64,000 nucleotides of DNA from Candidatus Heimdallarchaeota archaeon (GTDB taxonomy: Archaea; Asgardarchaeota; Heimdallarchaeia; Heimdallarchaeales; Heimdallarchaeaceae), in NCBI GenBank assembly GCA_021399345.1, contig JAAFKI010000112.1, positions 128,001 through 192,000 of the forward strand, given 5' to 3'. Both the position numbers and the translations under genes were made by a program. A model generated the notes under the pieces. It searched no databases and was not told the origin of the DNA. It saw only the letters and a program-made list of their open reading frames with translations. This document shows, piece after piece, positions 24,933-46,805 of the stretch. How positions within the stretch are numbered: position 1 is the first letter of the stretch; each line of letters starts with the position of its first letter.

Positions 24933-26444
24933 TTATTCTTCTTCCCCTTCTCCAAATTCTGTAGTTAATTGTTCATAGAAAGTATCTTCTTCAGATATTG
25001 GCTCAAGTTCACCTTCTGTTATAACTCCTGGTAGCTCTTCTTCCATAAACTCTTGATCTTCAAGCATTGGATCAATTGCATCCTCAAACCTTGATGAGAA
25101 TCTTTCCTGAATATATCCAATTAAAGAGGTCAAAAGTAATACGATGACAACTATCGGAATTAGTAATAAAACTACACCTTCTGGTTGAAGCATTTCTAGA
25201 GAATTGTATATTGAAGGCGGATATCGGAGAATGAACAATAGTATATCTGGATTTAAAATGACATACAATCCACCTAACATAATTAGCACTCTAAAAAGCA
25301 CTGATGTAAGAACATAGACTATAGTCATTAAAGGTTTAATAGTAACTGCAGCACCAACTAATTTTTCGTCAACTCTTGGATCACTATGAACAAGTCCATC
25401 ATGATATCTTTGCAGTCGAGATGTAAGTTTATCTTGTTGACCGCCTGGTCTTGCAAACAGAGAATCCGAAGCTTTCTCCAAGAAGTAAGTCATACCGGAA
25501 ACACCAAATTTTCTTGCGATCGAACTACCTGTTGCTCCTATGGATTGACCAGCTTTTTTCTCTTCTTCATCTTCTTCAGTTTCTGCAGCAAGTATTGGAC
25601 TTGGAGTCGGAGCTCCTGTAATACCTAATCTGAACTCGCTCAACCTATCAAGTGCTCTTAGTACTCTTTGCTGCCTGCTCTGCGCTGGGTTCAATATATG
25701 AGAAATATATGAGATTTGTAACGATATTTCTAAGAATAAATACGACGATAAAGCGATTAATACTACATCATTCGTGAAAAGCTCTCCTATATTCTTTGTA
25801 GGTGAAAATCTGAAATTGCTCTTGAATAGATGTTTTGCACTTCCGTAAAAGACAATAAATTGTATACTTACAAAAGCTGTAGCAGCTGAACGCATATCAG
25901 CTTTGAATAAAAATGCTACCAATGCAATTCCTAATAGGATAACAAAGAACATCAGAATTGATGCTCTGAATATAGCTTTAAGTGGATAGATAGCATTCAT
26001 TTCAAAGAGCTCCCCAAATGGAGAGAATAAATCTGTAGGATCTACCCCAAAGAGTACATCACTATCGATTTCACCTGGAGGTTGAACATTATTAAATAAA
26101 TCACCTGTTAGAAAAGCTCGCGCACCATATAATATTGCCCCCGCATCACTAGATGAAAAAGCTAAAAATATCATTAAAGGTGCAGTGAAAATAATCAGAG
26201 CTATGAGTTCGAGGATTATAAACAGGAATGATAGAGCATCTAACAAATGCCCATCTGGAAATAATGCAGGATTAGCAAAATCAATTAGAGTAAACAGTTC
26301 TACACCGACCCAAACTATAGCACCGATGGCGATTAATCTGCCAATTAGATGAGTTAAAAGGGTCTGAGTTCTTGCTCCTCTTATTCTACTTTGTACTCCT
26401 CTTATTCCCAAGTCAATTATTCTTGTATCTGATAAAGATTCCAT
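24933..26444 (-). CDS. Polytopic membrane protein, last gene of MoxR operon A, acidic C-tail
   Basis: ATG at 26444 behind GGGTGA; about 7 TM helices, a cytoplasmic insert and an E/D-rich tail. Confidence 0.75.
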   Translation of the reverse strand: MESLSDTRIIDLGIRGVQSRIRGARTQTLLTHLIGRLIAIGAIVWVGVELFTLIDFANPALFPDGHLLDALSFLFIILELIALIIFTAPLMIFLAFSSSDAGAILYGARAFLTGDLFNNVQPPGEIDSDVLFGVDPTDLFSPFGELFEMNAIYPLKAIFRASILMFFVILLGIALVAFLFKADMRSAATAFVSIQFIVFYGSAKHLFKSNFRFSPTKNIGELFTNDVVLIALSSYLFLEISLQISYISHILNPAQSRQQRVLRALDRLSEFRLGITGAPTPSPILAAETEEDEEEKKAGQSIGATGSSIARKFGVSGMTYFLEKASDSLFARPGGQQDKLTSRLQRYHDGLVHSDPRVDEKLVGAAVTIKPLMTIVYVLTSVLFRVLIMLGGLYVILNPDILLFILRYPPSIYNSLEMLQPEGVVLLLIPIVVIVLLLTSLIGYIQERFSSRFEDAIDPMLEDQEFMEEELPGVITEGELEPISEEDTFYEQLTTEFGEGEEE

Positions 26445-26451
26445 ACTTTTG

Positions 26452-27900
26452 TCACCCTTGTCTTTGCATCCTGTTAAACTGAGCCATAATTGTTGGTAGA
26501 AAATCATCTGGTCCTACTGAAATAGAAACAGAATCGTACCTTCTCAGTAATTTAAACATGTTCTGTCTTTCTCCTAACTGCTTTTCGACCATTGCATGAC
26601 CAATCATCTGTTCCACTGGAGATAATTGTTGAGAAACAATCTCAAACCAAGGACCAAATGGCGAAATAACGGTTATATTGTGTTTCTGTGCTCTAGCACG
26701 TCTAACAGCTTTCACCAAACGATCGGGATGTGATTCAAGATCAGTTAGAATCACTATATAGGAGGATCTTTTTACTCTTTGAAGTAGGTAGTTTATAGCA
26801 ACTTCAAGATCTGCTTCTCCTTCAGGTTTAGCATAAGCCAAAGCTTCTAGAAATTGGAATAATCTAGTTCGTGTTGAAGTTACATCGATCCAATTCCGAA
26901 CTTTATCGTTATATATACACATCCCAACTAAGTCTTTCTTCTCGAAAGCAAGATGTATTAGTAAAACTGCACTGCGGATTGCATATTCTAGTTTTGTGTT
27001 CCGTGGTAAACCAGCACCCATACTAGCGGAGGAATCTATCAAAACCAGCAAACGGATATTTTCTTCAGATTCAAACTCACGAACCATCATCTTACCAGAA
27101 CGTGAAAAAGCTTTCCAGTCGATGAATTTGAAAGGATCACCAGTTTGATACTTGCGAATACCCCAGAAATCAGATCCCATTCCTTTGAGTTTGGTTCTAT
27201 GGAACCCAAATAGCAATCCAAGTTGCCTCTTCTTACCTACCATATCTAGTTTCTTAATATCCTCATAACTTGGATAAACTAGAATTTCTGTTTTAGATTT
27301 AATTTCACCTTCTGTTGCATAGAAACCCATTCTATCTCTAATTATTACTTTTGTAGGACCGATTTCGAAAAGTCCTCTAATGGGAATTCGAACTACATAT
27401 CCATATGAGATGGTTTGTCTTGGATTAAGTTGCGTTACGATGAAATTTTCTCCAAGAATCAAATCGAAAACTTCTGGTATGGCATCATAGATTTCAATAG
27501 CTGGCAGTTGATTAACTGATTTGTTTCTGGCAGTTACTTCGATATAGACATAATCACCAGCAAAAGCTTTTGGTTTGGACACTCGTCTCTTAATTTCTAT
27601 TGATTTAGGATTAGAGCCCAACCTGTAGAAAGGCAAACCCAATAGAACTGAAAAGATAAGCATCACTCCACCGATAATGAAGAACCAGATGAGAGTTCCT
27701 TGACTATCTACATAAAAATGAAGGAAATCCATAACTCCAAAACCCTCAGGATCTGGGATGAAATCTGGATCATCTATTTGTGGGTTAAAACCAAACGAGT
27801 CAAGCATCACATTGAGTGATAAATATCCCGCTAGTGCAAAGCCTGCGCTAATCATGATGATTCCAGCAAAGATTAGCCAGCCACCTCGGCGAGTAAACAA
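26452..27900 (-). CDS. DUF58/vWA protein (operon A)
   Basis: 2 N-terminal TM; GSDFWGIRKYQTGD..IDWKA..MMVREFE; MIDAS DSSAS; ILTDLE. Confidence 0.9.
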   Translation of the reverse strand: MFTRRGGWLIFAGIIMISAGFALAGYLSLNVMLDSFGFNPQIDDPDFIPDPEGFGVMDFLHFYVDSQGTLIWFFIIGGVMLIFSVLLGLPFYRLGSNPKSIEIKRRVSKPKAFAGDYVYIEVTARNKSVNQLPAIEIYDAIPEVFDLILGENFIVTQLNPRQTISYGYVVRIPIRGLFEIGPTKVIIRDRMGFYATEGEIKSKTEILVYPSYEDIKKLDMVGKKRQLGLLFGFHRTKLKGMGSDFWGIRKYQTGDPFKFIDWKAFSRSGKMMVREFESEENIRLLVLIDSSASMGAGLPRNTKLEYAIRSAVLLIHLAFEKKDLVGMCIYNDKVRNWIDVTSTRTRLFQFLEALAYAKPEGEADLEVAINYLLQRVKRSSYIVILTDLESHPDRLVKAVRRARAQKHNITVISPFGPWFEIVSQQLSPVEQMIGHAMVEKQLGERQNMFKLLRRYDSVSISVGPDDFLPTIMAQFNRMQRQG

Positions 27901-27923: not shown

Positions 27924-28925
27924 CTATACGGGTACTGGTAGATTTCTCAATATTTCATTGACAACCATTGTACCAGTTGTTCCTTCTAATTCTGCTTCTG
28001 GTTTCATCATTAACCTGTGTGCGGAAGCTACTCTTGCAATACGTTTGATATCGTCAGGAATAACATAATCTCGACCACGCATTGCAGCAACGGATTTAGC
28101 AGCATTTAACAAAGCAATACTACAACGAGGACTACCTCCAAGAGAAAGTCTGGGATCGGTTCGGGTTGAGACGGTCAGGTCTTTGATGTACTCCATAAGA
28201 TCCTCATGGATGTAAATTCTAGACTCAACGGTTTCTTTCATCTTGACAATAGTCATGGGAGTGGTAACTCGTCTGACGGTTTCTCGAACCTGACTGTGTT
28301 TCAACTTAATGATATCCATCTCTTCTTCAGGGGAAGGCAAGTCAACTAGCAGTTTGAACATAAAACGATCAACTTGAGCCTCAGGTAAAGGATACGTCCC
28401 TTCTTGCTCGATGGGATTCTGAGTTGCTATAACCAAAAATGGATCGTCCAGTTTGAATGTTGTTCCTTCTACTGTCACTTGTTTTTCTGCCATTGCTTCC
28501 AATAGAGCTGCTTGTGTCTTTGGCGGACTTCTATTTATTTCGTCTGCTAGAAGTATGTTTGTGAATATTGGTCCTTTTCTCATCTTGAAAGTCCCTGCTT
28601 TTGGATCATATATTGTTGTTCCAACCACATCTGATGGTAGTAAATCTGGAGTGAATTGCACTCTTTTAAACTCACACCCTAGTGTTTGAGCAAACGATTT
28701 CGCCATCACTGTTTTAGCTATTCCTGGAACACCTTCTAACAAAGCGTGTCCTCCTCCAAGTAGCGAGATGAACATATCTTCTAGCACATCCAGTTTTCCA
28801 ATGATCACTCTAGCTAGTTCGTTGTATATTTCATCCCATACTCTCTTTACGTCTTTTGGAGTTACAACTGCTTCAGTAGCTGCTTTCGCTTTTCCTTTTA
28901 CTTCTTCATTTTTTTCTTCACTCAT
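27924..28925 (-). CDS. moxR: MoxR-family AAA+ ATPase (operon A)
   Basis: LLEGVPGIAKT, RVQFTPDLLPSD, LLADEINRSPPKTQAALLEAM, ATQNPIEQEGTYPLPEAQVDRF, GGSPR, VIPDD. Confidence 0.95.
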   Translation of the reverse strand: MSEEKNEEVKGKAKAATEAVVTPKDVKRVWDEIYNELARVIIGKLDVLEDMFISLLGGGHALLEGVPGIAKTVMAKSFAQTLGCEFKRVQFTPDLLPSDVVGTTIYDPKAGTFKMRKGPIFTNILLADEINRSPPKTQAALLEAMAEKQVTVEGTTFKLDDPFLVIATQNPIEQEGTYPLPEAQVDRFMFKLLVDLPSPEEEMDIIKLKHSQVRETVRRVTTPMTIVKMKETVESRIYIHEDLMEYIKDLTVSTRTDPRLSLGGSPRCSIALLNAAKSVAAMRGRDYVIPDDIKRIARVASAHRLMMKPEAELEGTTGTMVVNEILRNLPVPV

Positions 28926-28947
28926 TTTTTTCACTTTTCCTTTTTAA

Positions 28948-30612
28948 TTAACCGGGCAATCTATCGATTAAACCCTTTATGAATGTCATATATTTCATAA
29001 ACATGTGTTCTGGTATAATACGTGGTTTTGCCAAATAGGCCTCAATTCTAATTAATGTGTCAAGCAGATCTTTTTGACTTAGTGATGGATCTCTTATACT
29101 GAAGTACTCTGCTATTTCTTGAGGTGAGGACATTGATTGTTTTGTCACCTTTCTCAATCCTCTCAACATTGTTCTGTGAAGTAGACCCACTGCCTCACTA
29201 TATGCCCCCGTGTCAACTATCCTCCGTATCTCTCTTTCAAACCTTGACCTTCCTTTTTCTCCTCTATACTTTGTCCAAAGTATTGGAGTCAGACGGGTTT
29301 TCTTTGGTATCAAACGATATCCCAATATAGCAAAAATAATAGGTATAAATGGTGCATATAGAGGAAACATGGACATTTCTGTAATAAATCTCATTAAAAC
29401 CATGGAGTATACTGTAGCACTATAGAACTTCTGATGTGCGTGCCCTTCATCAAAAATTATGGGTACGGATTTTGGATCAGTTGTATTCATATCTGCTGTA
29501 AGATAATTGAATAAATTGATCGAGAATTGTGCATTATCATTCTCTGTTGGTTGGTCAATCCATTTATTGATAAATATGTCTGGATCTCCAATCATAACTA
29601 TTTTTCCTCGGCCTATTGGTAGAGTCATAATAGGCGCAAACATGGCATTACCCCATTCATCAGCATCAGGTGTTGCTGTTCCTTCCTTTGCAGATTGGAA
29701 ATCTGATTCTAACCAAGATGATTCGGTTGTGTAAAAAGGTAGGAATGGCAAGAAGAAATAACCTGCATCAATACCTAGATGTTCAAGCAAGTTAATAGCT
29801 TGCAGCGGCATCCAATCTGTTCTGTAAGCTTTGACTGTTTCAGCCTCATCTAGAAAGAATGAATGATTTATAGCAACGCTTAATGCTGTTCCAAATTCCA
29901 TCTGAAGTCTATCAACACCAGATGTTAACGGTGTTGAAACAGCTGGGGTTAGAATTGGCTGGGCAGGATTAACTGTATAACTTTCAGCATCCATCAATAC
30001 AGAACCATTAAAAGCAATACCTTTCATCATACCTAGCAGTTCGAAGAAAATGGTTTCTTCTGTTACTCCACCACCCTCTTCACCAAATCCGAACATTTCA
30101 GCTAAGGAAGGTATACCACCCTGCATCATAGCGATTTGATCCCAAGTATTAATTATATTAAATAATGGTTCGAATATTTCAGCCCCTGTTCCATAATCGT
30201 CAGCAACTAGTAAACTTCCTCCTCTCGCTAGGAAAGTTATTAGTGAGATTGTGTCAGTTGTGCTATACTGTGTAGCTGGTCCGATTATCGCAAAAACACC
30301 GGGTTCATATACTCTATTCAACAAAGATAAAGAAGACATACCATTGGTAATACCAGTAAAACCATCATTTTCAAGCACTTGACGTACACTAGATAAACCA
30401 TCCCAACTATCACTATAAATACTGAATTTTGTCCCATATCCACCTAGACCTACAAGACCTAGAAAGATAGGTACTACTACGATCATGAACAGAATAGACA
30501 TCACAATTGTGTATTTTGTGAAACTAAATTTAGGTAATTTAAATCTAGTTCTTGCTCTTGATTGTCTTTCTTGTTCTGCCTTTGCTCTTGGTTGGTTTCC
30601 TTGTTGGCTCAA
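28948..30612 (-). CDS. DUF4350 domain membrane protein (operon A)
   Basis: TM, then FSIYSDSWDGLS, FLARGGSLLVADD, GKIVMIGDPDIFIN, IIFDEGH, TM, helical cytoplasmic tail. Confidence 0.8.
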   Translation of the reverse strand: MSQQGNQPRAKAEQERQSRARTRFKLPKFSFTKYTIVMSILFMIVVVPIFLGLVGLGGYGTKFSIYSDSWDGLSSVRQVLENDGFTGITNGMSSLSLLNRVYEPGVFAIIGPATQYSTTDTISLITFLARGGSLLVADDYGTGAEIFEPLFNIINTWDQIAMMQGGIPSLAEMFGFGEEGGGVTEETIFFELLGMMKGIAFNGSVLMDAESYTVNPAQPILTPAVSTPLTSGVDRLQMEFGTALSVAINHSFFLDEAETVKAYRTDWMPLQAINLLEHLGIDAGYFFLPFLPFYTTESSWLESDFQSAKEGTATPDADEWGNAMFAPIMTLPIGRGKIVMIGDPDIFINKWIDQPTENDNAQFSINLFNYLTADMNTTDPKSVPIIFDEGHAHQKFYSATVYSMVLMRFITEMSMFPLYAPFIPIIFAILGYRLIPKKTRLTPILWTKYRGEKGRSRFEREIRRIVDTGAYSEAVGLLHRTMLRGLRKVTKQSMSSPQEIAEYFSIRDPSLSQKDLLDTLIRIEAYLAKPRIIPEHMFMKYMTFIKGLIDRLPG

Positions 30613-31000
30613 CTACTTCTACACCCTGTTCTCTTATTCCTCTGAAACAGATATCTAGTCTCTGAATTGCTTCTTGATAATCGTCATAAGATATATCGGC
30701 ATCAGTATAACGTGCTATCTCAAATGATGTTAAGTATTCATCCATAACTTCATGTGAAATATTAGCTGTGTTTGCTACATTAATACCAAATTCTCGTCCT
30801 GTTTCATAAGGAGCACGAGCCATGCTAAGAAGACCATCAGCGATGTTTGTTAAACCTCCAAAAGAGGCTATTACAGCACCTCTATAGTCTTGTCGTTGCT
30901 CGAAAATTCTAACATCTGCCATTACAGATGTAAACATTTGGTTTAAAGCCTTAACTTGTTTTCTTCTTTTAAAGAATCCAGAGGATTTACTACGACTCAA
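30545..31000 (-). CDS. Stand-alone DUF4129 protein (operon A)
   Basis: RAPYETGREF...LTSFEIARY motif; TTG start behind AGGTGA. Confidence 0.8.
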   Translation of the reverse strand: MSRSKSSGFFKRRKQVKALNQMFTSVMADVRIFEQRQDYRGAVIASFGGLTNIADGLLSMARAPYETGREFGINVANTANISHEVMDEYLTSFEIARYTDADISYDDYQEAIQRLDICFRGIREQGVEVVEPTRKPTKSKGRTRKTIKSKN

Positions 31001-34000
31001 TTTTCATTTCACCTACTTCAATTTTATCTACTATTTTTAATAATGCACGCACTCCAGCATTGAAATCTTTTTCAGTGATTTCCTCAAAACCATATCGTGC
31101 TTTTTCGAAATACTCTAAAAGAGTACCAATGAGCTCGCGCTCAATTTTACTTTTGTAAGCTAATAATCTTGCAAATTCTGTAGGAGTCTGACTCCTATAT
31201 CTTGGGAGATCATAGAATTCTCTACCAATACCCTCCACAACACTCCATGTCTTTAACAAACCCTGTTTATATCTTCCCTCTAGCCCATCTTTCTTAATAT
31301 CATCAATTATCTCTCGCAGATAATCTCTCAATCTTCTTCTGAATGTTTGTTTCTGGGCATATGTTTTGATTGTATGTCTATTGAACCAGAGGAATAAACC
31401 TGCTAGAATAAGAACAACTGCACCAGCTGCTCCACCTATAATTGCTCCTAAATTACCTATTCCTAATCCACTGCTTTCATAGACTACTGATAAGCTTCTT
31501 AATACAGAACCCGTATTTTCAACTGCATCAGTTGCTGCTATCGTATAAAGGAGAGCATATGTTCCTGAAGTTCTGAATCTAAATTGTGACAAATCTACTG
31601 TTGCTGTGAAAATATCACTAGTACCTATTCTAGTCATTTCTACAGAATAATCTTCAACAACAATTGTAGTTCCAAGTGAAATTGTAATATTAATAGTAAC
31701 AGTAGAAACATTGGTTAATATGTCTATTACTGATGCATTGAATGTTAAAACAGAATCAGGATCAGCTGTACCATTAATTGCATTTACAGTAATTGCGAAA
31801 ATGTTAGGACTATCAGAATCATCTGTAATGAAAAACATTGAAGGAAATAATCCTAGATTAGGCTGAGGTAATGCATTATCATAAGCTCCATAATACCAAG
31901 TATAGTTGTAATTATAATCTAAATCTATATGGTAAGTCCATTCATTTGTAAATGGAACATTTATCATAAGATCTTGAAAGTTTACATCTACAACATTTGT
32001 TAGAAGATTTCTACCTGTAACATTAATTGCAACAAACCACATACCGCTATAAACTTTTGAATCATTAACGAACACAGAAATATCAATAAATGGATTAGGA
32101 ATATTACCTGAATAAGTTACCACAGGAACTGCAACTGCCTCTGGAGGATGAAAATCTCCCACTCTATATAATCCATCTTCAGTATCCGTATAACCAAAAT
32201 TAGCATCATACCACTGCGCTGGAAGAATTTGTCTACTTCCAAATTCATCTAAACCATGTCCTGCATAATCTTTTACTTCCACTGAATATTCAACATACCA
32301 TTGACTTTGAGAAGCATTCATGGTTATGTTATCTTCATATGTGTCAGGTGCAATGTTGGTTAAAGTGACACTGCTTGTTGAATCGTAAACACCTAATTCA
32401 TCATATAAATCATAGTAGATTATAACGGATCTAACCCCTGAATCTGCGTCTGTTGCAACTACTGTGAAAGTAATATTGAAATAAGGATCATGACTTGCAG
32501 TGCTGTTTGGATCAGGTGATAAATTAACACTTACTAAAACAGGTGCTTCAGTATCAGGACCATAAATATTAATCGTTTGTGTGATAGTTGTTGCTGGAGC
32601 ATAATCTCCACCTATTGCTATCAAATCTCCTGTAAAAGCAAGATTGTGATCCCATCCTGCTCCTAAATGTGTCTTATCATATCTCACATAATTTTGTCCT
32701 GCAGTTACAAAGAAGAATGCTTCTTCACCAGCAAAAGTTATTGATATCCTTGCACCTACAGGATTTCCTCCCCATTGATCCTGTGCTTGAAGTTCATAAT
32801 ACTCATCATTTATATCAAAGTCATTCCAAAAAGTTCTATTCCACACATCTCTTGAAGTACCATCTAAAGCTGCCCCTCCATCATTATCAGTTAGAGTTAA
32901 TGAAAGAGCATAATACATATTAAAGTTGTCAGCAGCAGTTGGAGAACTTGGAGCATAATATTTGTAAGTTCCTCCATCATAATCTAATCCTGTAACAGTT
33001 ATAGGTTCTGTTTGAGCTTGAACTGCATAACTGGGAACTAGAGATATTATATCTCTATCTCCACTAGCTGTAGTAAAGTAGAAATCAGGTGGCTCACCTG
33101 TGAAATCTATTTGAAATTGTGAGATAGGACATAAATTCCCATTAATGTCTTCAATTTCTACAGTGAAGTCAATCGGTAATCCTACTGTATAGGAACTTAT
33201 TATATCAGCGATTGTTATACGAACCGTCGTTATGTTTACAGTTAATACTGAATCTAAGGAATCTCCAATCATTCTTGCTCCAGGAAATTCTGCAGCTACA
33301 GGTTGAAGGTAAACAATAAAACCTTGTGTTATATCAGAAACATTAACTAATGGGTTCAAGTATGTGCTAAATTTAATTCCACCTGTAGAATTAGTTGTGT
33401 ATATATCACTTGGAGAGGTATGATTAGATCCATCATAATAATAATATACATTTATCGTTTTTGCGGATTCTAAACCTGAGCTAGAAGATAAGTTTGCTTG
33501 TATTTCAAAGGTATCTCCTATTTCAATTTCCATTGGTATTTTGCTTAATGCACTTCCTATGTTATAATAAGCATCGACTAGTGCTGATTCTTCCGTATTT
33601 CCAAATGCAGATCCAAGTAAGTGTAGAGCAGGATTAAAAGTACCTATTCTCACAAAGAAGCTGAAAGGTAATTGAGTTATATCATAATCTACATCATATG
33701 TTACACTGTCAGTTCCAGCTGCAGGTGCTATTCCACTATATATATGCTGATTGGATGCAAAAACTGCAGTTCCACTATCATCAAACGCATCATAAGTTGC
33801 CCAATCAACAACATAATCAAAACTGGTTCCTGTTGGATCTAAAACAGTTCCATTATCAAAAAGAATCTGTGTTGTAAAAGAATAAGGAAAATTAGGATTA
33901 CCAACTACTGGATTAATACTAAATTCAAGCTCACCATAAATTTCAACTATTACATCTCCAGGACTTCCTTCTAACCTATTTGGATCAGTTAAACTACCTC

Positions 34001-38127: not shown

Positions 38128-38136
38128 CATCGCTAT

Positions 38137-38832
38137 TTGGAAGTGATATCCATTCAAGTAAAGCTGATCTCCTACCCAAAAGAAACTGATTTAATTGCTA
38201 AAATGGCTGCAGCAATCTGTTATTCAGGTGGTCATGATTACGAAGAAATAAGAAAAGATGCTGAGAGTAAACCTGCAGAATATCTTAGTATAATAGTTAA
38301 GAATGGTCATTTATCTATTCTCGAACATAATATCTATGTTTTCTATATTTCTGGTTTAAGTAGAGTAGCAAGTCATCAACTAGTCAGAAAGCGTATTGCT
38401 AGTTATTCCCAACAATCACAAAGATATGTTAATGCAAAAAATTTCAGAGCTGTTATTCCTGATACAATTGAAAAATCACAATTCCTAGAACAGTACAACA
38501 AGAAACTTGAGGATTGCAGCAATTTGTATCAACAAATGGTAGATGGGGGTATTCCGAAAGAAGACGCAAGATTCATCTTACCAGGTGCAACAACAACACA
38601 GCTGATGGTTTCCATGAACGCACACGCTTTAATCGACTTTTTTGTCCAGAGATTATGTGTGCGTAGTCAGTGGGAGATCAGACAACTAGCTGTGGCAATG
38701 TTGGAAGAAGCTCAGAAAGTTTCTCCTTTAATATTCAAGGATTTAGGTGCATATTGTGATTTTTACGGCTATTGTCCAGAAAATGACAAATCATGTGGAA
38801 GAATTAAAACTTTGAAAGAACTAATAAAATAA
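38137..38832 (+). CDS. thyX: FAD-dependent thymidylate synthase
   Basis: GHLSILEH, SRVASHQLVRKRIASYSQQSQRY, KEDARFILP, RLCVRSQWEIR, C-terminal Cys cluster. Confidence 0.92.
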   Translation: MEVISIQVKLISYPKETDLIAKMAAAICYSGGHDYEEIRKDAESKPAEYLSIIVKNGHLSILEHNIYVFYISGLSRVASHQLVRKRIASYSQQSQRYVNAKNFRAVIPDTIEKSQFLEQYNKKLEDCSNLYQQMVDGGIPKEDARFILPGATTTQLMVSMNAHALIDFFVQRLCVRSQWEIRQLAVAMLEEAQKVSPLIFKDLGAYCDFYGYCPENDKSCGRIKTLKELIK

Positions 38833-38900: not shown

Positions 38901-39707
38901 TTATTCACTAAACTCAGATATCTCATCATCGTTGTCTATTGGTACTATAGTTTCATCTTTAATTTTCGGTAAAATTGCATTCATTCTTGTAAGGATAATT
39001 GTATAGAGGATTGCTACAACAATAAGTGAAGGACGAATTATGAATTCAGCTATAGTATTTGGGGGGATTATGAAATAAATTATCGTTGAATATAAAACTG
39101 CAAATAAAATTAGAATCAGTATTGAAATTAAGGGCCAAAACATCTTTTTGATAAGTATCCACCACTTCTGAAGCACATCAAGCTCTTTAACTGGTTCGCT
39201 TTCAAAATCAGTTAAGGTTAAATTATCTTCGTAGTGTTTCACTTGTTCCTTTGCGTAATCTCCAGTTGGTAAAATGTAAAATCTTTCTTGAGAATAGAAT
39301 TCCAGAAAGAACATAGATAGGAGTAATCTCAAGGCTATACAAATCCCTGCAGATACTTGGTAAAGTATGATGTCAATTCTGCCAAGTGTATCTGGGAAAA
39401 ACATGGAATTTACATTTGCAAGTAATAGAGAAAATGCTGTACCCAAAATAAAGAAAATTCCGAAACTCAATTCATTTTTGAGATTCAAATCTCCGCCCCT
39501 AAATAAATCAATCATCAGATTGATAATACCTATTATTAGCCAGATTGTAAAAACATAAACATTCAAACTTATAGCTGACTGTAAAATTATTATTGCGATC
39601 GCTATCACCCCAAATAGATGATGACAAAATATCATAATCTGAGAGCCAGGAGCTGTTTTCTTGGTTTTTTTCCAATCATCCTCAAAGACTTTATCTCTTA
39701 TTCTCAT
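38901..39707 (-). CDS. Polytopic membrane protein, last gene of MoxR operon B, acidic C-tail
   Basis: About 6 TM helices; starts 1 nt after the DUF58 stop; ends DNDDEISEFSE. Confidence 0.75.
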   Translation of the reverse strand: MRIRDKVFEDDWKKTKKTAPGSQIMIFCHHLFGVIAIAIIILQSAISLNVYVFTIWLIIGIINLMIDLFRGGDLNLKNELSFGIFFILGTAFSLLLANVNSMFFPDTLGRIDIILYQVSAGICIALRLLLSMFFLEFYSQERFYILPTGDYAKEQVKHYEDNLTLTDFESEPVKELDVLQKWWILIKKMFWPLISILILILFAVLYSTIIYFIIPPNTIAEFIIRPSLIVVAILYTIILTRMNAILPKIKDETIVPIDNDDEISEFSE

Positions 39708-39708
39708 T

Positions 39709-41100
39709 TTATCGCCCTAATGCTTCTTGTACTAATCTATGTGATGGGGAATATTTATTCATCAACCTGTAAAGTGACAAAATTATGTTATCTTCATACC
39801 CATTAATCTCCACATAATCACCACCAACTGAATATAGAATTCGTCTAATTTCAGCTTCTCTCTTCAGATATTCATCTCTCACTAAACTAGGAAAGACATT
39901 ATCTATGATATCTCTATATTCAATATTCTGAGCTTCATTAGCTATCCATTCAGATGAGGCAAGAATATTGAAATCCATAGTAGAAAAATTAACGAATATT
40001 ACTCGGCTCCCCATAGAATGAAGCAAATGTAACCCTTGAAGTTTCTTTTTTAAATCACCTTCCAAATCAGAAAATATTATAGCTATTGAATGATTCAATT
40101 GATTGTTTTTAGTAAATTTCACAGCATTGATGAAGTTACTTTCAACCCCAAGGGGCTCAATATCAAATAAATTTAACATTAATCTCAATTCATTTCTCCC
40201 AACTTGGGGAACAATGAATCTACTAACATTGTCCCCATATGCAATCACTGCCAAATCATGGCTTGTCCCTCTGATGAGTGAGGAAACTTCAACAGCAGAA
40301 GATAAAGAGTGTTCAAATTTAGGACCAAACATAGTACTTCCTAAATCAAGGTATATTAGGAAGTGAAGATTTCTTTCATCTTCATATTCTCTGGTAATCA
40401 ATTTGTCATGTCTTGCAGTAGCAAACCAGTCTATGTGTTTTACTTCATCACCTGGGAGGTAATCACGAAGTGCAAAGAATTCATCGCCGCGACCCTTAAC
40501 CCTTTGAGCAAATTCATGGACCATTTTAAGAAGAAGTTCTTTCTTTGTTTTCCATGGTATATTGATACGTGGTCTTTGGGGAAGCACCTTTATTGCTGTA
40601 ATTTCTCTCAGAATTCTTAGATTTTTAAACAGCTGTTGATGAGGTCCTACAGCTATTTCTATTGGTCCAATTTCTGCATTTCCTCTTCGAACTGCTAATA
40701 ATATCCATACAACTTTCTGTGTTTGATCTGGTTCTAATCTTAGATATAATTGATCTGGTATGTTGATACTTTGGAAGTGATATGAAAATCGCAATGTGGT
40801 TTTAATCATAATTGTTTTTTTCGAACAATTGGTCAGATTTACTGCAACAGCGAGTAAACCTCTACTCCTTAGATACTCTTTTGATATTCTCACATCAACA
40901 TCAAAAGAAACATCTTGTGTTGTTAGGTAGTGAACAAATGCAGAAGCTATTACTAACCAGAAAAGAAGACCTGGAATAATTAAGAGATAGTTATCAATAG
41001 ATAAACCTAGAACTATAGACAAACTTCCCAAAAGGATGAATATCCTTCCATTCTTTGTTAATTCAAAGACTTTTTCCTCTTCCATAGTTAACTTCCTCAT
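39709..41100 (-). CDS. DUF58 protein (operon B), degenerate MIDAS
   Basis: 2 TM; GDEFFALRDYLPGDEVKHIDWFATAR..ITREYE; DLGST; IFSDLE. Confidence 0.9.
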   Translation of the reverse strand: MRKLTMEEEKVFELTKNGRIFILLGSLSIVLGLSIDNYLLIIPGLLFWLVIASAFVHYLTTQDVSFDVDVRISKEYLRSRGLLAVAVNLTNCSKKTIMIKTTLRFSYHFQSINIPDQLYLRLEPDQTQKVVWILLAVRRGNAEIGPIEIAVGPHQQLFKNLRILREITAIKVLPQRPRINIPWKTKKELLLKMVHEFAQRVKGRGDEFFALRDYLPGDEVKHIDWFATARHDKLITREYEDERNLHFLIYLDLGSTMFGPKFEHSLSSAVEVSSLIRGTSHDLAVIAYGDNVSRFIVPQVGRNELRLMLNLFDIEPLGVESNFINAVKFTKNNQLNHSIAIIFSDLEGDLKKKLQGLHLLHSMGSRVIFVNFSTMDFNILASSEWIANEAQNIEYRDIIDNVFPSLVRDEYLKREAEIRRILYSVGGDYVEINGYEDNIILSLYRLMNKYSPSHRLVQEALGR

Positions 41101-41107
41101 GCTTAGG

Positions 41108-42052
41108 TTAAATTACAACTTCAACTTCTGACAGAATATTTTGGATAATTTCTGAAACCCTAATTTGTTCAATTTCAGCTTCAGGAGACAAGATCAATCT
41201 ATGATTCATGACTGGAAAGAAAATAGATTTGATATCATCTGGTTCTACAAAATCTCTTCCTCTTATTGCAGCAATTGATCTACTTAATGTTAACAAAGCT
41301 ATAGAACCTCTAGGGCTTGCGCCCAATGCTAGAGATGGTACCGATCTTGTAGCAACAACAAGTTTTGCTATATATTCGATTATCTGATTGCTCAAAATTA
41401 CGCCACCTTCTATCTCATTTGATAATTTTTGTAAAGTATCCTTTTTTGTAACAGCGTTTACATCAGCAAACATTTGTTCTTTCTTTTTCAGCAGCATAGA
41501 TATTTCTCCTTGCAAAGAGGGAGGATAAACAGGTATTTTTACAAGGAATCGGTCAATCTGAGCTTCTGGGAGAGGATAGACTCCGGTACTTTCAATGGGA
41601 TTTTGAGTCGCAATTACCATGAAAGGTTCTGGAAGTTTGTATGTTTTTTTTCCTGAAGAAACTTGTTTCTCTTGCATTGCTTCTAAAAGAGCTGATTGTG
41701 TCTTTGGAGGACTTCTGTTTATTTCATCAGTTAGAAGAATATTGGTGAAAACTGGTCCTTCAATGAAATTGAACGAGCTTGTTTCTCTTTCATATATATT
41801 TCCACCAGTAATATCTGCAGGCATCAAATCGCTTGTAAATTGAATTCGTTTAAATCCTACTTTCATTACTTCTGCTAGAGTGCTTGCCATCAAAGTTTTG
41901 GCTATTCCTGGTACACCTTCTAGAAGAACATTTCCTCCACTTAGTAGTGAAGCAAACATAAGTTCAATGACATTTTCATTTCCAACAATCCTTTTCTTCA
42001 TTTCGTCCATAATTTTACTGAATATTTCTTTCGTTTCTTGTATTTGTGTCAT
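41108..42052 (-). CDS. moxR: MoxR-family AAA+ ATPase (operon B)
   Basis: LLEGVPGIAKT, RIQFTSDLMPAD, DEINRSPPKTQSALLEAM, ATQNPIE..YPLPEAQIDRF, GASPR. Confidence 0.95.
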   Translation of the reverse strand: MTQIQETKEIFSKIMDEMKKRIVGNENVIELMFASLLSGGNVLLEGVPGIAKTLMASTLAEVMKVGFKRIQFTSDLMPADITGGNIYERETSSFNFIEGPVFTNILLTDEINRSPPKTQSALLEAMQEKQVSSGKKTYKLPEPFMVIATQNPIESTGVYPLPEAQIDRFLVKIPVYPPSLQGEISMLLKKKEQMFADVNAVTKKDTLQKLSNEIEGGVILSNQIIEYIAKLVVATRSVPSLALGASPRGSIALLTLSRSIAAIRGRDFVEPDDIKSIFFPVMNHRLILSPEAEIEQIRVSEIIQNILSEVEVVI

Positions 42053-43335
42053 TTATATCGCCTTCTTTTTTGTATGATTTCCAACTTCTTAAACAGAAAT
42101 AGGAATGTATCGTGATCTAATTTCTTTGTTAGTGCGAGCTCATAAAGCTCTCTCTCTTCCTCTTCGAATAGATGAGAAGGAACAAATTTCATCTTCTCTA
42201 GAATAAAATAATTATAACCCTTACTTGGATAAAGTTCATGTTGAAAATATAAATAGGAAAGAACTTTTTCCTCAACTGTTGGATTAATGGGGGATCCAAA
42301 TGTATCAAATAGCTCTCTCCGTCTACTCCAGATTTTTTTTGATATAAATTTCTTATAGGATTCCTTTGTTTTATATACGTCTTTAATTCTTGGAGTTAAA
42401 TAATAAAAAATCAACAATAAAAGAACTGCCACGAAGATGAAATATCGAGTTTTTGACAACAAAATCACAGCTCCATATGTTTGGTTAACTATACCTTCTG
42501 TAGAAGCGAAGGGCCACCTTTTGTGGCTTTCTTCAAAACAAACTAAAGATTCTGAACCCCCAGAGTATGCTCCAATAAGATTTATTGCAAGATTAATATT
42601 ATCAAATCCCGCAGTGTACAAATCATTAGAAAGAAAACTTACTGCAGAAATTGCTACTATTACTCCAGAACCTCTACTTATTGCTACAGCTACCTTGTAG
42701 CTTCTAGTACTTTCTGAGACTTGATTCCACATCTTGTCTCCATTTTTGTCGATAAAAGTTGTTGGCTCAGTTGCAATTGATTGAACTTCAGTTTGTTGTG
42801 AGCTTGTTGAAACATAGAGAATTGCTTTCGCTTGAGCAAAACACAATGTTCCATTAACAGTTGCGGGTGAATGTGCAAAAATAAATTCTGGAGTGGGGTA
42901 GTAATTTTCTGTTTCTAAAAGCATAGAAGCAGATATTCCCAAACCTAAATATCTTGCAAGATCATAGGAAGAACCTGACCCCACAAGAAGAAGAAGGGTT
43001 CCCCCTCGCCCAATAAACGAATCTATAACAATTTTTTCTGCAGATCTATAGTTTTTAGCCCCTCCTGCAATTACAAGAATTGAGGAATCAGGTAGTGTCT
43101 TTACTGGTTCGGTTGACAAGATAGTCCTAGTGGTATTAAATCCTCTTTCCTGAAGAAGTGAATTAAAGATAGACAGTCCACTTGGTGAAGTGTCATATAT
43201 TGTATAAGGAGGAGGAGAACTAGTAATATTGATGCTTAAGGGAATTGTAACTATAGCAAATATCAGTAGAGTTTGAATAACCATTTTAAAGAATGGTGAA
43301 TATTTATTGGAAAAGAAAGCCTTTGAAAACTTCAT
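42049..43335 (-). CDS. DUF4350 domain membrane protein (operon B)
   Basis: TM, YTIYDTSPSGLS, FIGRGGTLLL, GSGVIVAIS..FLSN, CFEESH, TM; ATGA-type overlaps on both sides. Confidence 0.75.
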   Translation of the reverse strand: MKFSKAFFSNKYSPFFKMVIQTLLIFAIVTIPLSINITSSPPPYTIYDTSPSGLSIFNSLLQERGFNTTRTILSTEPVKTLPDSSILVIAGGAKNYRSAEKIVIDSFIGRGGTLLLLVGSGSSYDLARYLGLGISASMLLETENYYPTPEFIFAHSPATVNGTLCFAQAKAILYVSTSSQQTEVQSIATEPTTFIDKNGDKMWNQVSESTRSYKVAVAISRGSGVIVAISAVSFLSNDLYTAGFDNINLAINLIGAYSGGSESLVCFEESHKRWPFASTEGIVNQTYGAVILLSKTRYFIFVAVLLLLIFYYLTPRIKDVYKTKESYKKFISKKIWSRRRELFDTFGSPINPTVEEKVLSYLYFQHELYPSKGYNYFILEKMKFVPSHLFEEEERELYELALTKKLDHDTFLFLFKKLEIIQKRRRYK

Positions 43336-44129
43336 TCTACCTCACCTAGTTGTTTTGTTTGAGATATCTGAATATCGATTTCCTTACCACTCAAATCTTT
43401 GATAGTTTTCAATTCCAGTATAAACTGTTCAAGATCATCATAGGTCATTTGAGAAATTCTATATCGTGCCACATAGAAGATATCTATTATCCATTTGAAA
43501 TGGGGGAGGATTTCAGGTAAATCTAGAGATAAGGAAAATTCTTTTGGTGTAAGGTAAGTTTCTCTTTTAATTCCAAGAACCAATTTCATATTCTTATCCA
43601 ATTGATGATATCCAAAGATTATGCCCTCAGCAAAATTTCCTTTTTTCAAATAATCTTCTAAAACATCAACTAAGGTAACAATCCGAGTACTGAATTTTTG
43701 TCTTCTTGTAGAAATTGTGGATTTACTTTGTACTGAACTTGCACTTGTTGAACTCACTTCTTTCCTTTTTCGAAAGTATAGCATGAAAACTAGTATTAAA
43801 ATCGCAACTCCTATGCCTATAGGAAGTATTCGGGAAGAAATACTAGGTTTTTCAGTTTGCGTGATTCCACCATTTGAAGGAGTAGGAGGAGTAGCGGTTG
43901 GGTAAGTTGGTCCAGAAGTGGTTGATAAAGGATCTGACGTCGTATTGAAATCCCCAATATTTGTTGTAGTAAGCGTACTAACCGGAATATCATTAATACT
44001 TTCATAACTTTCTTGAGAACTATTTAACAAGATGAAAATGATTAGACAAACTACTAGAAGTAGAATTCTAAAATTAAAGTACTTACTAATATTTCTAGAC
44101 ATTGTTTTCACCTTCCATGGAATCGTCAA
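43332..44129 (-). CDS. DUF4129 protein with short T/P/S-rich extracellular linker between two TMs (operon B)
   Basis: TM, T/P-rich stretch, TM, then RETYLTPKEF...IFYVARY. Confidence 0.75.
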   Translation of the reverse strand: MTIPWKVKTMSRNISKYFNFRILLLVVCLIIFILLNSSQESYESINDIPVSTLTTTNIGDFNTTSDPLSTTSGPTYPTATPPTPSNGGITQTEKPSISSRILPIGIGVAILILVFMLYFRKRKEVSSTSASSVQSKSTISTRRQKFSTRIVTLVDVLEDYLKKGNFAEGIIFGYHQLDKNMKLVLGIKRETYLTPKEFSLSLDLPEILPHFKWIIDIFYVARYRISQMTYDDLEQFILELKTIKDLSGKEIDIQISQTKQLGEVE

Positions 44130-45081
44130 TAACTAACTTACTCTCACTTAAGAATGCATATACCCTACATAATGGCCAGTAATCAGTCAAGCAAATCTGA
44201 TACTTATGTTCTGCTGTAACATAACCCAAATATGCACATTTGCCTTCAGCAAAATACTTGCAATATTTCTTCTCTGTGGATTTTAATAGGCTCTCTACTT
44301 TTCGATTCATGTAAACCATAGATAATGCGTGGTATTGTCTATCTTCAGATTTAGGCGGTTTATCCAGATCAAAAACTGTTTTTACTGACAGAGGCATTTT
44401 TGGTTGTATTAGGTTAGAATAAGTTATTTTCGCTCCTTTCTTAGGGAGAAACATATTTATGAATAATTTACCAAATCGAACACCTATTACCCCCCCTAGA
44501 GAACCAATAATTAAGAAAGATACTGAAAATACAAAAATGAAACCTAGATACCAAAAACCTGCAAAGACTCCCGAGATACTAGCTGCTAAAGAACTGAATA
44601 AAATCACTTGCGAAAGATGTAGTGTAATAAAAAGTAAAAATGTTATTAGTGCAGAACTAAGAACTAAATCACGCGCTTCTTCTCCCCAAAAAAGTGCACA
44701 AATGATCCCAGCTAAAAAGAATGGTAAAAAAATGGTGAGCACATAATTGGTAATCAGAGAATCTATGTTTTGTGAAATGAAAGTGGATAGAAATGGGAGA
44801 TAAAGAATTTCTTCAGGACTCCAAATAAGTCCATAGAATAATGAAAAATCATCTAAATAATACAATATCAAGCTGAGAGTAATTGATATGGCATAAGTGA
44901 TAGCAAGATACGTTGAGGTTCTTCTGATCAAAACTCCTAGATACTCCCGTTTTCCCCTATTCTTTAAGGAGGGAAAGAATAGCTTATAGAGAAGATATTT
45001 GAAATCAAGCTTAAAGGGAGCAGGTCCCTTTTTTCCTGTTTTTGGTGGGGGAGGGTTGTAAGAAGCATCTCGTCTTTCCAT
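44095..45081 (-). CDS. 4-TM membrane protein with C-terminal C-x7-C-x14-C-x7-C cluster (operon B)
   Basis: Hydrophobic helices, then CKYFAEGKC...QICLTDYWPLC; GGTGA SD. Confidence 0.7.
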   Translation of the reverse strand: MERRDASYNPPPPKTGKKGPAPFKLDFKYLLYKLFFPSLKNRGKREYLGVLIRRTSTYLAITYAISITLSLILYYLDDFSLFYGLIWSPEEILYLPFLSTFISQNIDSLITNYVLTIFLPFFLAGIICALFWGEEARDLVLSSALITFLLFITLHLSQVILFSSLAASISGVFAGFWYLGFIFVFSVSFLIIGSLGGVIGVRFGKLFINMFLPKKGAKITYSNLIQPKMPLSVKTVFDLDKPPKSEDRQYHALSMVYMNRKVESLLKSTEKKYCKYFAEGKCAYLGYVTAEHKYQICLTDYWPLCRVYAFLSESKLVIDDSMEGENNV

Positions 45082-45089
45082 ATTATCAC

Positions 45090-46805
45090 CTAAATTACTA
45101 TAAGATTCGTCCCCCTTGCAGCTTTTATGATGAACCTTATGAACAGAACATCAAGTAATAGTATCAAACTAATACCAATCAGTCCAAAGAAGATTTGATA
45201 GATAGATATTATCAAAAAAACAGCAAATATTGACAAGTACAGGGTTGTTATTAGAAGAGAAAATGCAACAATGGCTGTGATGTTAATAGAAGCTAAAATT
45301 GATTTAACTCTGTTTTTTGAAGATCTGTACCAAGCAATGCTAACACCTAGAGCAATTATAACACTCAGGAGAAATATAGTATTCCCCAAGAAATGCAAGG
45401 AATTTTCAATTGTACTAAAAACAAAAGCAAAGATAATAATTATACCAACTCCTAAAATCCTAGTAAAACCAACAGAAAAATGTATGTAAAGAGGTGGTGA
45501 TGAAGAGCCCATTTTTTCATGCAATGTTGGAACATCTGAACCACATGCCCAACAATTTCTGCTAAAAGCTGGAACAACTTGGTTGCAGTTTTCGCATTGA
45601 AGTTTAGGAAAAGACCAACAATTACCACAAAACTGTCCATTGTAAAGAGGATACTGACATTCAGGACATAGCATCATTCTTGTTGATTCGTCAATAAGTC
45701 TCTTAACACTCTTCTTCTTCTTAATTTTCTTCTCATACATCGTGTTTTTCCCCTCATATTGTTCACAATCATTGATTCTATGTTCACTATGACAACTAGG
45801 ACAAATTTTCGGAACATTAAATAAAATCCAAATCGCAAATAAACCAAAAATACCATAGGAAACATAACCCATTAGTTGAAGTTGGGAAATAATGAATTTC
45901 TCGCTAAAAACTTGGAAATTATAATTCCAGTATGCATGAAAACCAACAGAAATTAACAGAAACAGAATAAAAATTATTCTTGAAGCTAATTTCTTCTTGT
46001 TTTTTCTTGATATGAAGAGAAAACCTACTCCGAATGCAAGTAACATAGAAGTGACAGAATGTAAGGGAAATATAGTTCTCGTATTAATTAGTATGTCTAT
46101 TATTTCTTGATTATTTAATGCTGAAGCGAAATATCCTGTTGGAGGATTGCTCAAAATTGAGAAGGACAGGAACTGTTCAAACAAATCAAACCATGCTCCA
46201 TAAAAAGCCCCTAATAAAACAAAAGTTCGATGGGTTGGGATTAAATTAGTTACAATATTCTTTTTTCCAACGCTAATTCTTGCATAGTTTCCAAGAAGAA
46301 TAAGAAGCGGAAATATCTTTGCAAATTCCTCAATAAGAGGAATTATTGAAACATACAATACTGAATTAGCCAATTCATAAGTAGCTCCTGGCACGCCTAT
46401 TGAAGTTAAAAGACTTCTAAAAGAAAAAATTAGTAAAGTAGCTTTGTTCTCTATCACAGTTGCAAAGTAAGCTGTTAGTGAAGCTGTAACTAATAACAAT
46501 GGAAATATTTTCCTTATAACTGATTTTTCAATATTAGTACTAGTTATGGAGAAAAGAAAATAAAGACTGAAAATCCAAACTAGAAAAAATAGAATAATTA
46601 CAAATATTAGTACAATTGAAAAATAATTTGATTCAACATAATAACTCAATAAAGAATAAGGTAGATACATCATACCAATCAAAATGCCAACTAAAACCAA
46701 TTTTCCTAAGCTTGAAAGACTGAAGATTCTATTGTACAAAAATCTGTTAGGAACCACTATGGAAGAACTACTCTCACTAACATTCTCCTCTGAAGTTCTC
46801 AACAT
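45090..46805 (-). CDS. PrsW-family intramembrane protease with internal zinc ribbons (first gene of operon B)
   Basis: PLIEEFAK, FDLFEQ, PLHSVTS, GFHAYWN motifs; CPSC-H-C, CPEC/CGNC, CENC/CWAC; 4 further TM. Confidence 0.8.
   Translation of the reverse strand: MLRTSEENVSESSSSIVVPNRFLYNRIFSLSSLGKLVLVGILIGMMYLPYSLLSYYVESNYFSIVLIFVIILFFLVWIFSLYFLFSITSTNIEKSVIRKIFPLLLVTASLTAYFATVIENKATLLIFSFRSLLTSIGVPGATYELANSVLYVSIIPLIEEFAKIFPLLILLGNYARISVGKKNIVTNLIPTHRTFVLLGAFYGAWFDLFEQFLSFSILSNPPTGYFASALNNQEIIDILINTRTIFPLHSVTSMLLAFGVGFLFISRKNKKKLASRIIFILFLLISVGFHAYWNYNFQVFSEKFIISQLQLMGYVSYGIFGLFAIWILFNVPKICPSCHSEHRINDCEQYEGKNTMYEKKIKKKKSVKRLIDESTRMMLCPECQYPLYNGQFCGNCWSFPKLQCENCNQVVPAFSRNCWACGSDVPTLHEKMGSSSPPLYIHFSVGFTRILGVGIIIIFAFVFSTIENSLHFLGNTIFLLSVIIALGVSIAWYRSSKNRVKSILASINITAIVAFSLLITTLYLSIFAVFLIISIYQIFFGLIGISLILLLDVLFIRFIIKAARGTNLIVI

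Follow-up and report, generated by a model that had tools for sequence, protein, structure and literature searches.

Among bacteria, DUF4129, DUF4350, MoxR, DUF58, SpoIIM-like and RDD proteins form a module, exemplified by the Rv3689-Rv3695-type cluster of Mycobacterium. MoxR is the closest prokaryotic relative of the AAA+ domains of dynein and midasin. PrsW of Bacillus subtilis is the site-1 protease of the anti-sigma factor RsiW; to our knowledge, archaea have no sigma/anti-sigma system. The DUF4129-DUF4350-MoxR-DUF58 core ranks among the more widespread conserved membrane gene sets of unsolved function. For archaea, the DUF4350-MoxR-vWA (von Willebrand factor A) neighbourhood of arCOG01314 was predicted in 2015 to encode a secretion or membrane-remodelling complex (PMC5898192). 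Operons joining MoxR, vWA and transglutaminase (TGase) were analysed in 2012 (PMC3495828, PMC3507681), among them the MoxR-DUF58-TgpA operon PA2875-PA2874-PA2873 of Pseudomonas aeruginosa and the yeaC-yeaD-yebA type of Bacillus (PMC3507681, PMC3495828). Together with a vWA adaptor, MoxR functions in remodelling (PMC3495828); TgpA, whose gene is co-transcribed with those of MoxR and DUF58, is essential and shows activity in vitro (PMC3507681). The Esr pathway of Actinobacteria, comprising an immunoglobulin (Ig)-repeat sensor, TGase, MoxR and vWA, is experimentally supported (bioRxiv 10.64898/2026.09.08.750141). Here, two operons of Candidatus Heimdallarchaeota archaeon, termed A and B and located at positions 24933-46805 of a 64,000-nucleotide stretch of contig JAAFKI010000112.1 (the window), were compared with these systems.

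Operons A and B are paralogues that diverged long ago, both of them encoding an envelope-spanning module of one kind. On the ORF map of the window, 24933-46805 showed 14 long open reading frames (ORFs) in minus and one in plus orientation. The minus-strand ORFs form two tightly packed seven-gene operons (A, 37689-24933, genes A1 to A7; B, 46805-38901, genes B1 to B7; Table 1), with thyX between them on the opposite strand, and both follow the order DUF4129-like, DUF4350, MoxR, DUF58, polytopic protein. Coordinates, Pfam and BLASTP agreed on this point with the initial annotation, in which two co-oriented, coupled seven-gene operons split by thyX and sharing their tail order had been described. 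Intra-operon junctions range from -68 to +23 bp, many being preceded by a GGTG-type ribosome-binding motif; A6 starts 23 bp past A5 and B6 starts 7 bp past B5. The arrangement is confirmed as real, chance being ruled out because it is conserved as a whole across many genomes. The preferred reading, tentative and rated a little below an even chance, is that membrane-tethered MoxR-DUF58 remodels surface proteins via DUF4129-like domains.

The distribution survey covered the Asgard phylum, the spread of the core in bacteria and other archaea being taken from the cited papers and from Pfam control genomes. ORF maps of related loci were produced with an in-house ORF caller and transmembrane (TM) helices were assigned from a hydropathy window, individual helix counts being approximate; families are designated by number (f1, f2 and so on). 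Of the 83 genomes available for the class Heimdallarchaeia, 76 encode a single-copy homologue of A7. By tblastn on 20-kb stretches, DUF4129, DUF4350, MoxR, DUF58 and A7 were recovered in the same order in families f1, f5 and f7, and in f4 only DUF58, MoxR and A7 were found together. DUF4350 was detected in 123 of 151 sampled Asgard genomes. With profiles built here, all 13 loci from 13 further Asgard families carried a giant or small DUF4129 protein, DUF4350, MoxR, DUF58 and an A7-like protein, in order. Operon A therefore represents, in its Heimdallarchaeaceae version, an operon that all sampled Asgard lineages possess, A7 being its fifth conserved core component.

Operon B is a seven-gene cassette restricted, within the Asgard sample, to Heimdallarchaeia (families f1-f5). 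BLAST searches with B7 returned family f1 only (28/30 genomes). B6-like DUF58 genes in f2-f5 led to clusters with the same seven genes, order and sizes: PrsW (550-620 aa, 10-13 Cys), a 4-6-TM protein, a 2-TM DUF4129-like protein, DUF4350, MoxR, DUF58 and a 5-6-TM protein. The terminal proteins of the different families belong to one family (hhalign 98.2%, E 5e-14), the profile of which matched 50 clusters only among 1.84 billion representatives; for the weakest of these matches the cluster names gave one label, Kariarchaeaceae. In the 151-genome phylum sample, convincing matches were confined to f1-f5. No B-type cassette was found outside Heimdallarchaeia; PrsW-zinc-ribbon homologues of two other Asgard families are not located beside MoxR. 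Conservation of the head genes with the MoxR core, on which the initial interpretation depended, was observed for both operons, the B heads occurring in five families of the class and the A giant surface protein across the phylum.

For the age of the two operons, a MoxR tree was calculated with IQ-TREE (57 rows, Asgard sequences only, rooted on the third MoxR of this genome). The B clade (SH-like approximate likelihood ratio test, SH-aLRT, 99) contains Heimdallarchaeia only and lies outside the A clade (89), which holds all Asgard A-type MoxRs and in which those of Heimdallarchaeia are nested. Since the B MoxRs stand outside all Asgard A types, the pair did not arise by local duplication; B may have originated by ancient duplication or by horizontal acquisition, the tree being limited to Asgards. 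In closed genomes of other families the two clusters are 140 kb (G057) and 830 kb (G045) apart, and the B-thyX-A arrangement was present in 5/5 Heimdallarchaeaceae genomes examined (four genera), so adjacency is a family trait. The tree bears out the proposal of paralogous modular systems with an old split. Swapped head modules, also proposed, do not fit it, as it resolves two separate old lineages that are neighbours only in Heimdallarchaeaceae. Identity between A and B amounts to 50% for MoxR, 27% for DUF58 and 26% for DUF4350, and A7 gave no BLASTP match with B7.

Both MoxR proteins scored above the curated Pfam cut-offs (A5, 221.8 bits for AAA_3 and 77.6 for AAA_lid_2; B5, 209.1 and 79.4). 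Walker A (GVPGIAKT) and Walker B (LL[AT]DEINR, in A5 LLADEINR) are intact in both, the D-E pair being invariant in 43 relatives, and from these invariant motifs an active MoxR motor is predicted in each operon. A5 and B5 also exceed the cut-off of Pfam bpMoxR, and related MoxR-vWA systems have been given conflict roles (PMC8195603, PMC7159879), so that a role in biological conflict or against viruses, as a system of the MoxR-vWA ternary type, was considered. AAA_3 scores far higher than bpMoxR in both proteins, however, neither operon contains a beta-propeller, effector or toxin domain, and PADLOC gave nothing above noise, its single DolB match being sub-threshold. Together with the phylum-wide stable synteny, vertical inheritance and housekeeping flanks, this leaves an anti-virus role extremely improbable.

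A6 and B6 each consist of an N-terminal TM hairpin and a remainder placed in the cytoplasm alongside MoxR; by the positive-inside pattern, the vWA domains of DUF58 and the DUF4129 domains are cytoplasmic. The metal ion-dependent adhesion site (MIDAS) of the A6 vWA domain reads DSSAS and is intact, DxSxS being invariant across all A-type orthologues. The corresponding motif in the vWA-like domain of B6 (DLGST) is degenerate, and the position is variable or lost across B-type orthologues.

A4 and B4 share one layout: anchored at the N-terminus, they expose an ectodomain, which in A4 is GldG/ABC_transp_aux-like, and past another TM helix they end in the cytoplasm with a basic tail of ~120 aa. Weak additional Pfam matches were of the ABC_transp_aux/GldG type and to IFT52-GIFT. 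A profile of 36 DUF4350 cytoplasmic tails was aligned with the DUF4129 profile over 100 columns (hhalign 85%, E 6.4e-6), the controls, namely the DUF4129 alignment in reverse and seven unrelated families taken from these loci, giving E 0.38-0.97. With moderate confidence, the cytoplasmic tail of DUF4350 thus appears to be DUF4129-like itself; if real, this likeness would bring such cytoplasmic modules to three in operon A (A2, A3, A4) and two in operon B (B3, B4).

Operon boundaries stand as initially given, because the flanks are housekeeping genes (EF-2, F420 ligase). EF-2 follows below A7 on the other strand; above B1, past a gap of 188 bp, a tetratricopeptide repeat (TPR) protein, F420 ligase and an FrhB-like protein are encoded. 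A 239-aa TPR-like protein upstream of operon B (47354-48073, minus strand) gave sub-threshold matches to Nup120 HEAT repeat and TPR_12. The distance from thyX to the A1 start is 447 bp and to the B7 end 68 bp. Between the operons, thyX keeps its opposite strand and the same orientation in 5/5 Heimdallarchaeaceae genomes checked (four genera); its site is a stable insertion point without obvious functional link to the operons. The start of A7 is probably ATG 26444, 7 bp past the A6 stop, and not 26507. A promoter and terminator scan gave nothing above shuffled sequences, its consensus being bacterial and not applicable to archaea. A third MoxR cluster of the same genome is located outside the window on contig C55 (~31980-42530), with other partners and without DUF4350 or DUF4129. 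It encodes MoxR (340 aa), 727-aa 4-TM, 230-aa 2-TM and 530-aa 10-TM proteins, a short DUF58 protein (313 aa) without the TM hairpin, a 620-aa protein with signal peptide and C-terminal TM helix, and a 753-aa 10-TM protein.

Table 1. Genes of operons A and B and the intervening thyX, with positions in the window and the Pfam or BLASTP matches (E values) on which their description is based.
Gene	Position	Strand	Length (aa)	Description	Matches
A1	34636..37689	-	1017	transglutaminase-like membrane protein	Transglut_core 1.6e-6
A2	30990..34634	-	1214	surface protein	C-terminal DUF4129 5.9e-7
A3	30545..31000	-	151	soluble basic free DUF4129 protein	DUF4129 0.008, below cut-off
A4	28948..30612	-	554	DUF4350 protein	DUF4350 2.1e-14
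A5	27924..28934	-	336	MoxR-proper AAA+ ATPase	AAA_3 2.7e-66, AAA_lid_2
A6	26452..27900	-	482	DUF58 protein	DUF58 1e-33, VWA_2, VWA
A7	24933..26444	-	~503	polytopic, ~8 TM helices	no named family
thyX	38137..38832	+		flavin-dependent thymidylate synthase, member of neither system	Thy1 1.9e-59
B1	45090..46805	-	571	PrsW-family intramembrane protease	PrsW 3.9e-9, DZR (double zinc ribbon)
B2	44095..45081	-	328	4-5 TM helices, cytoplasmic C-terminal Cys4 motif	weak DUF5518 match
B3	43332..44129	-	265	2-TM protein, cytoplasmic DUF4129-like domain	BLASTP to A3 3e-4
B4	42049..43335	-	428	DUF4350 protein	DUF4350 2.3e-12, ABC_transp_aux 1.2e-5
B5	41108..42052	-	314	MoxR-proper AAA+ ATPase	AAA_3 2.4e-62, AAA_lid_2
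B6	39709..41100	-	463	DUF58 protein	DUF58 4.9e-18
B7	38901..39707	-	268	5-6 TM helices, small Heimdallarchaeia-only family	no Pfam match

The position of the operon A head is occupied, in 13 further Asgard families, by a giant or a small DUF4129 protein. The giants are single proteins of 1170-1850 aa, with a weak TgpA_N match, Transglut_core (1e-14 to 1e-19), CarboxypepD_reg, Big and MG2 Ig-like repeats, a TM helix and a C-terminal DUF4129 domain; one of them (L089) matched the structure of P. aeruginosa TgpA (6G49) at 1.6e-5 as its sole match in the Protein Data Bank (PDB). In the window, A1 has three N-terminal TM helices plus one, with the TGase-like domain predicted extracellular from hydropathy and charge, and it gave no match among PDB sequences. 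A2 consists of a signal peptide, an acidic ectodomain of 1037 residues with 2.0 N-x-S/T sequons per 100 aa (vs 0.6 in the cytoplasmic proteins), a TM helix (1064-1082) and a basic cytoplasmic DUF4129 domain. A3 was matched by BLASTP to the A2 C-terminus (5e-4) as well as to B3 (Table 1), and its orthologues are present in f1, f5 and further Asgard families. Using hhalign, A1 351-645 was aligned to the TGase region of the giants (99%, E 2.6e-18), A2 117-647 to their Ig-like repeats (97.7%, in several registers, as repeats would give) and A2 930-1213 to their last repeat, TM helix and DUF4129 domain (98.9%); a profile comparison of A1 with A2 gave no mutual match. Because A1 and A2 align to separate parts of the giants and not to each other, the Heimdallarchaeaceae head (A1, A2 and A3) is the fission product of one TgpA-like giant gene, A1 corresponding to the N-terminal and A2 to the C-terminal part of the ancestral giant. 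The Ig repeats that the initial annotation had assigned to A2 were not found by Pfam, which detected no Ig domain in the protein, but the alignment of the ectodomain with the Ig-like repeats of the giants supports them indirectly.

Alignment with two intact TGase-like proteins of the same genome showed that all three catalytic positions of A1 are replaced (Cys to Ser, His to Tyr, Asp to Gly), and an identical triad loss was observed in 5 A1 orthologues from four genera. Judged by these residues, the TGase domain of A1 is dead, in agreement with the pseudo-transglutaminase noted before. In most Asgard giants the catalytic Cys is Ser (Asp or Gly in two) with His and Asp kept (loci L086, L089, L090, L094, L095), Cys being retained only in the giants of families f12 and f23; the exchange to Ser could be a Ser-His-Asp variant or a widespread inactivation. 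These residues bear on a further explanation, membrane-proximal ATP-dependent degradation, in which vWA recruits, MoxR unfolds and a peptidase cleaves the substrate, the TGase-like domain serving as peptidase in A and PrsW in B. Such a model was put forward by Zhang and Aravind in 2012 (PMC3495828), and the position of the papain-fold TGase-like domain in A is taken in B by another protease, PrsW; for B the model fits. The TGase-like domain is, however, predicted to be extracellular, on the side opposite to MoxR, the TgpA domain is periplasmic and a transglutaminase in vitro (PMC3507681), A1 has lost every catalytic residue and most Asgard giants carry Ser in place of the catalytic Cys. As a general account, degradation is accordingly given very little weight; for B alone it merges with the preferred remodelling reading.

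In operon B, PrsW of B1 scored 36.8 bits (cut-off 23.5), and the motifs EEFAK at 159, FDLFE at 206 and HAYWN at 290 are conserved in 10 of 12 homologues; an FPLH motif is also present. With its PrsW motifs intact, B1 is a predicted protease. A cytoplasmic insert of five CxxC pairs (zinc ribbons) is followed by further TM helices, the ten Cys of these pairs being invariant in 12 B1 homologues. In B2, the motif C-x7-9-C-x13-15-C-x8-9-C is kept in 9/12 positional homologues. B3 follows the same design as A2 at a far smaller size, with an ectodomain of ~65 residues; it gave no Pfam DUF4129 match, but was matched by the DUF4129-like profiles built in this analysis, and 11 homologues occupy the same position in B-type clusters. 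Where a second copy of the B cassette exists (L075 and L079, families f4 and f3), the catalytic motifs of PrsW and the B2 Cys4 motif are lost and the five CxxC pairs are kept; in L078, PrsW is intact and the B2 Cys4 motif absent. In family f5, one or two proteins of ~520 aa (L068:2178-5577, L070:10860-12458, L071:3950-5533, L077:3991-5553) are encoded ahead of the B-type cluster. Each has a soluble N-terminal half with 20-22 Cys and, towards the C-terminus, 6 TM helices; nothing corresponds to them upstream of B1 in the window.

The two heads also invite an Esr-like, outside-in explanation, in which giant ectodomains in A, or small ones with PrsW in B, would detect an envelope signal and pass it through DUF4129/DUF4350 and MoxR-DUF58 to a membrane output, the B version operating by regulated intramembrane proteolysis with release of the Cys4 regulator. 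In Bacillus, PrsW is a signalling protease that makes the site-1 cut, B2 has a conserved Cys4 tail, Esr of Actinobacteria senses epibionts with an Ig-repeat filament, TGase, MoxR and vWA (bioRxiv 10.64898/2026.09.08.750141), and the gene set of the PFNA operon is similar. Against this stands that neither operon encodes a kinase, phosphatase, FHA domain, transcription factor or other output, that no beta-propeller or obvious ligand-binding head was found, and that operon A, inherited vertically as a single copy, occurs in nearly all Asgards, which suits a housekeeping function better than a diversifying sensor. Sensing, the main rival, is therefore regarded as rather unlikely, and the initial interpretation, an extracellular input coupled across the envelope to an AAA+ motor, as partly supported.

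The terminal membrane proteins remained without assignment to a named family. A7 carries 23 residues invariant across the class, charged ones among them. Pfam and NCBIfam searches gave no match to A7, nor any to A7 or B7 with relaxed thresholds and every family member scanned, and word-indexed homologue searches with A7, B7 and A4 returned only Heimdall-group proteins. ESM Atlas scores of A7 and B7 (<=0.84) were uninformative. AlphaFold2 models reached predicted local distance difference test (pLDDT) values of 70 (A7, all-helical) and 74 (B7), and Foldseek found no PDB match for either at E <=0.001. VIA wide gave for A7 only generic long-helix or BAR-like rows (Z <=8.9, below the meaningful level for helical proteins). 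A7 and B7, paired in the initial annotation as the polytopic ends of a common tail, are not demonstrably homologous (hhalign E 0.12 and 0.0011, probability <=20%), both comparisons aligning the same short motif. This motif (A7 341-359, B7 153-171) precedes the last TM helices and reads RLQRY..L..SDP vs EQ(L/V)..Y..NL..TDFE; its scores are not significant, and it is possibly a trace of common origin. The acidic tail that had been noted in both terminal proteins is rejected as a shared functional feature because it is lineage-specific, being basic or absent in most relatives.

On A7 and DUF4350 depends a further alternative, a dedicated secretion or surface-display system in which the GldG-like DUF4350 protein and the polytopic protein would export the giant, energised by MoxR. 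It was predicted by Makarova, Galperin and Koonin in 2015 for arCOG01314 neighbourhoods (PMC5898192), and the weak ABC_transp_aux and GldG-type matches of DUF4350 as well as the conservation of the polytopic A7 with its invariant charged residues would agree with it. For the giant and the DUF4350 proteins, however, the Sec pathway suffices, given their ordinary signal or anchor sequences, MoxR-proper ATPases are not known as translocases, A7 and B7 resemble no known channel or secretion component, and operon B is without large cargo; the chance given to secretion is correspondingly small.

In the remodelling reading, which is preferred, a cytoplasmic MoxR hexamer would be tethered to the membrane by the TM-anchored DUF58/vWA adaptor and would work on the cytoplasmic DUF4129-like helical domains of the giant or B3, of free A3 and of the DUF4350 protein. 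ATP hydrolysis would drive assembly, conformational change or extraction of these surface proteins across the membrane, with A7 or B7 as putative membrane platform. In A, the client would be the glycosylated surface giant, which would be matured, anchored or turned over, while A1 would persist for binding rather than catalysis. In B, the client, once remodelled, would be passed to PrsW and cut within the membrane; as substrate or regulator of PrsW, the Cys4 protein B2 is the best candidate. Several points weigh against this reading. The contact between DUF4129-like domains and the vWA adaptor or MoxR is pure inference. The likeness of the DUF4350 tail to DUF4129 reaches only 85% probability, and the MIDAS is intact in the A type only and degenerate in B, so the adaptors cannot bind clients alike. 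PrsW has its active site within the membrane, the substrate of B1 is only a candidate, and the B2 Cys4 and PrsW motifs are not always lost together (L078). A7 and B7 have no recognisable fold or family, which makes the role assigned to them a guess.

A more specific proposal takes the DUF4129-like domain as a handle by which the vWA adaptor and MoxR may pull on single-pass surface proteins, giving an inside-out, ATP-driven relay that would gate PrsW in B. Although unlikely in this strict form, it would, if true, place such a relay in every Asgard lineage sampled and constitute the first AAA+-assisted regulated intramembrane proteolysis in archaea. The system gains in tractability from the TgpA-type origin of the Asgard-wide form, from the class-wide link to PrsW and from single-pass partners that seem to end in the same cytoplasmic domain; predicted contacts (vWA or MoxR with DUF4129) and readouts (PrsW cleavage, surface display of the giant) result from it.

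Compared with PrsW of B. subtilis, B1 shares the Pfam PrsW domain, the motifs EExxK, FxxxE and HxxxN and the polytopic build, and differs in its five-CxxC zinc-ribbon insert, its extra TM helices and its location in a MoxR operon. The bacterial SpoIIM/RDD module has the order DUF4129, DUF4350, MoxR, DUF58 of both operons, followed by polytopic proteins. In A and B, however, SpoIIM and RDD are absent and A7 and B7 belong to other unnamed families: neither SpoIIM (PF01944) nor RDD (PF06271) was matched by A7, B7 or B2, PF01944 was matched nowhere in the genome (88.6% complete), and PF06271 matches lie on contig C169 only, not in the operons.

With the MoxR-DUF58-TgpA operon, operon A has in common co-oriented MoxR and DUF58 genes and a membrane protein with an extracytoplasmic TGase domain and C-terminal DUF4129. 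The Asgard form adds DUF4350, the conserved polytopic protein and long Ig-like repeats in the head, and in the window the head is split over three genes with its triad gone, whereas it is a single polypeptide elsewhere in Asgards. Esr and PFNA of bifidobacteria (PMC8430577) likewise combine a large Ig/FN3-repeat surface protein with TGase, MoxR and vWA/DUF58. Their Ser/Thr kinase, phosphatase and FHA outputs and their beta-propeller head have no counterpart among the 14 window proteins, and they in turn lack DUF4350 and the DUF4129 single-pass partners of the window operons.

The arCOG01314 complex, itself also a prediction only, comprises in one operon an anchored DUF4350 protein with an extracellular flavodoxin/GldG-like domain, MoxR (COG0714), an Ig-vWA (DUF58) protein, small 2-3-TM and 5-TM membrane proteins and Ig-like surface proteins. 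A4 and B4 conform to the build of its DUF4350 protein, in which a large ectodomain is placed between a signal or anchor at the N-terminus and a TM helix at the C-terminus. It differs in its Ig-like S-layer-type proteins of pfam07760 (DUF1616, COG4743), which were matched by none of the 14 window proteins, and the paper does not describe a TgpA-like giant with DUF4129 tail, the A7 family or a PrsW/Cys4 head (PMC5898192). With DUF4350-MoxR-vWA (PMC5898192) and MoxR-vWA-transglutaminase (PMC3495828, PMC3507681) already published, the locus cannot be called an undescribed system, as was suggested at first. Operons A and B are lineage-specific variants of a known, functionally unsolved kind and form no new category; to this kind are added here the evidence for fission of the head, the contrast in MIDAS between A and B, the small B7 family and a probably DUF4129-like DUF4350 tail.

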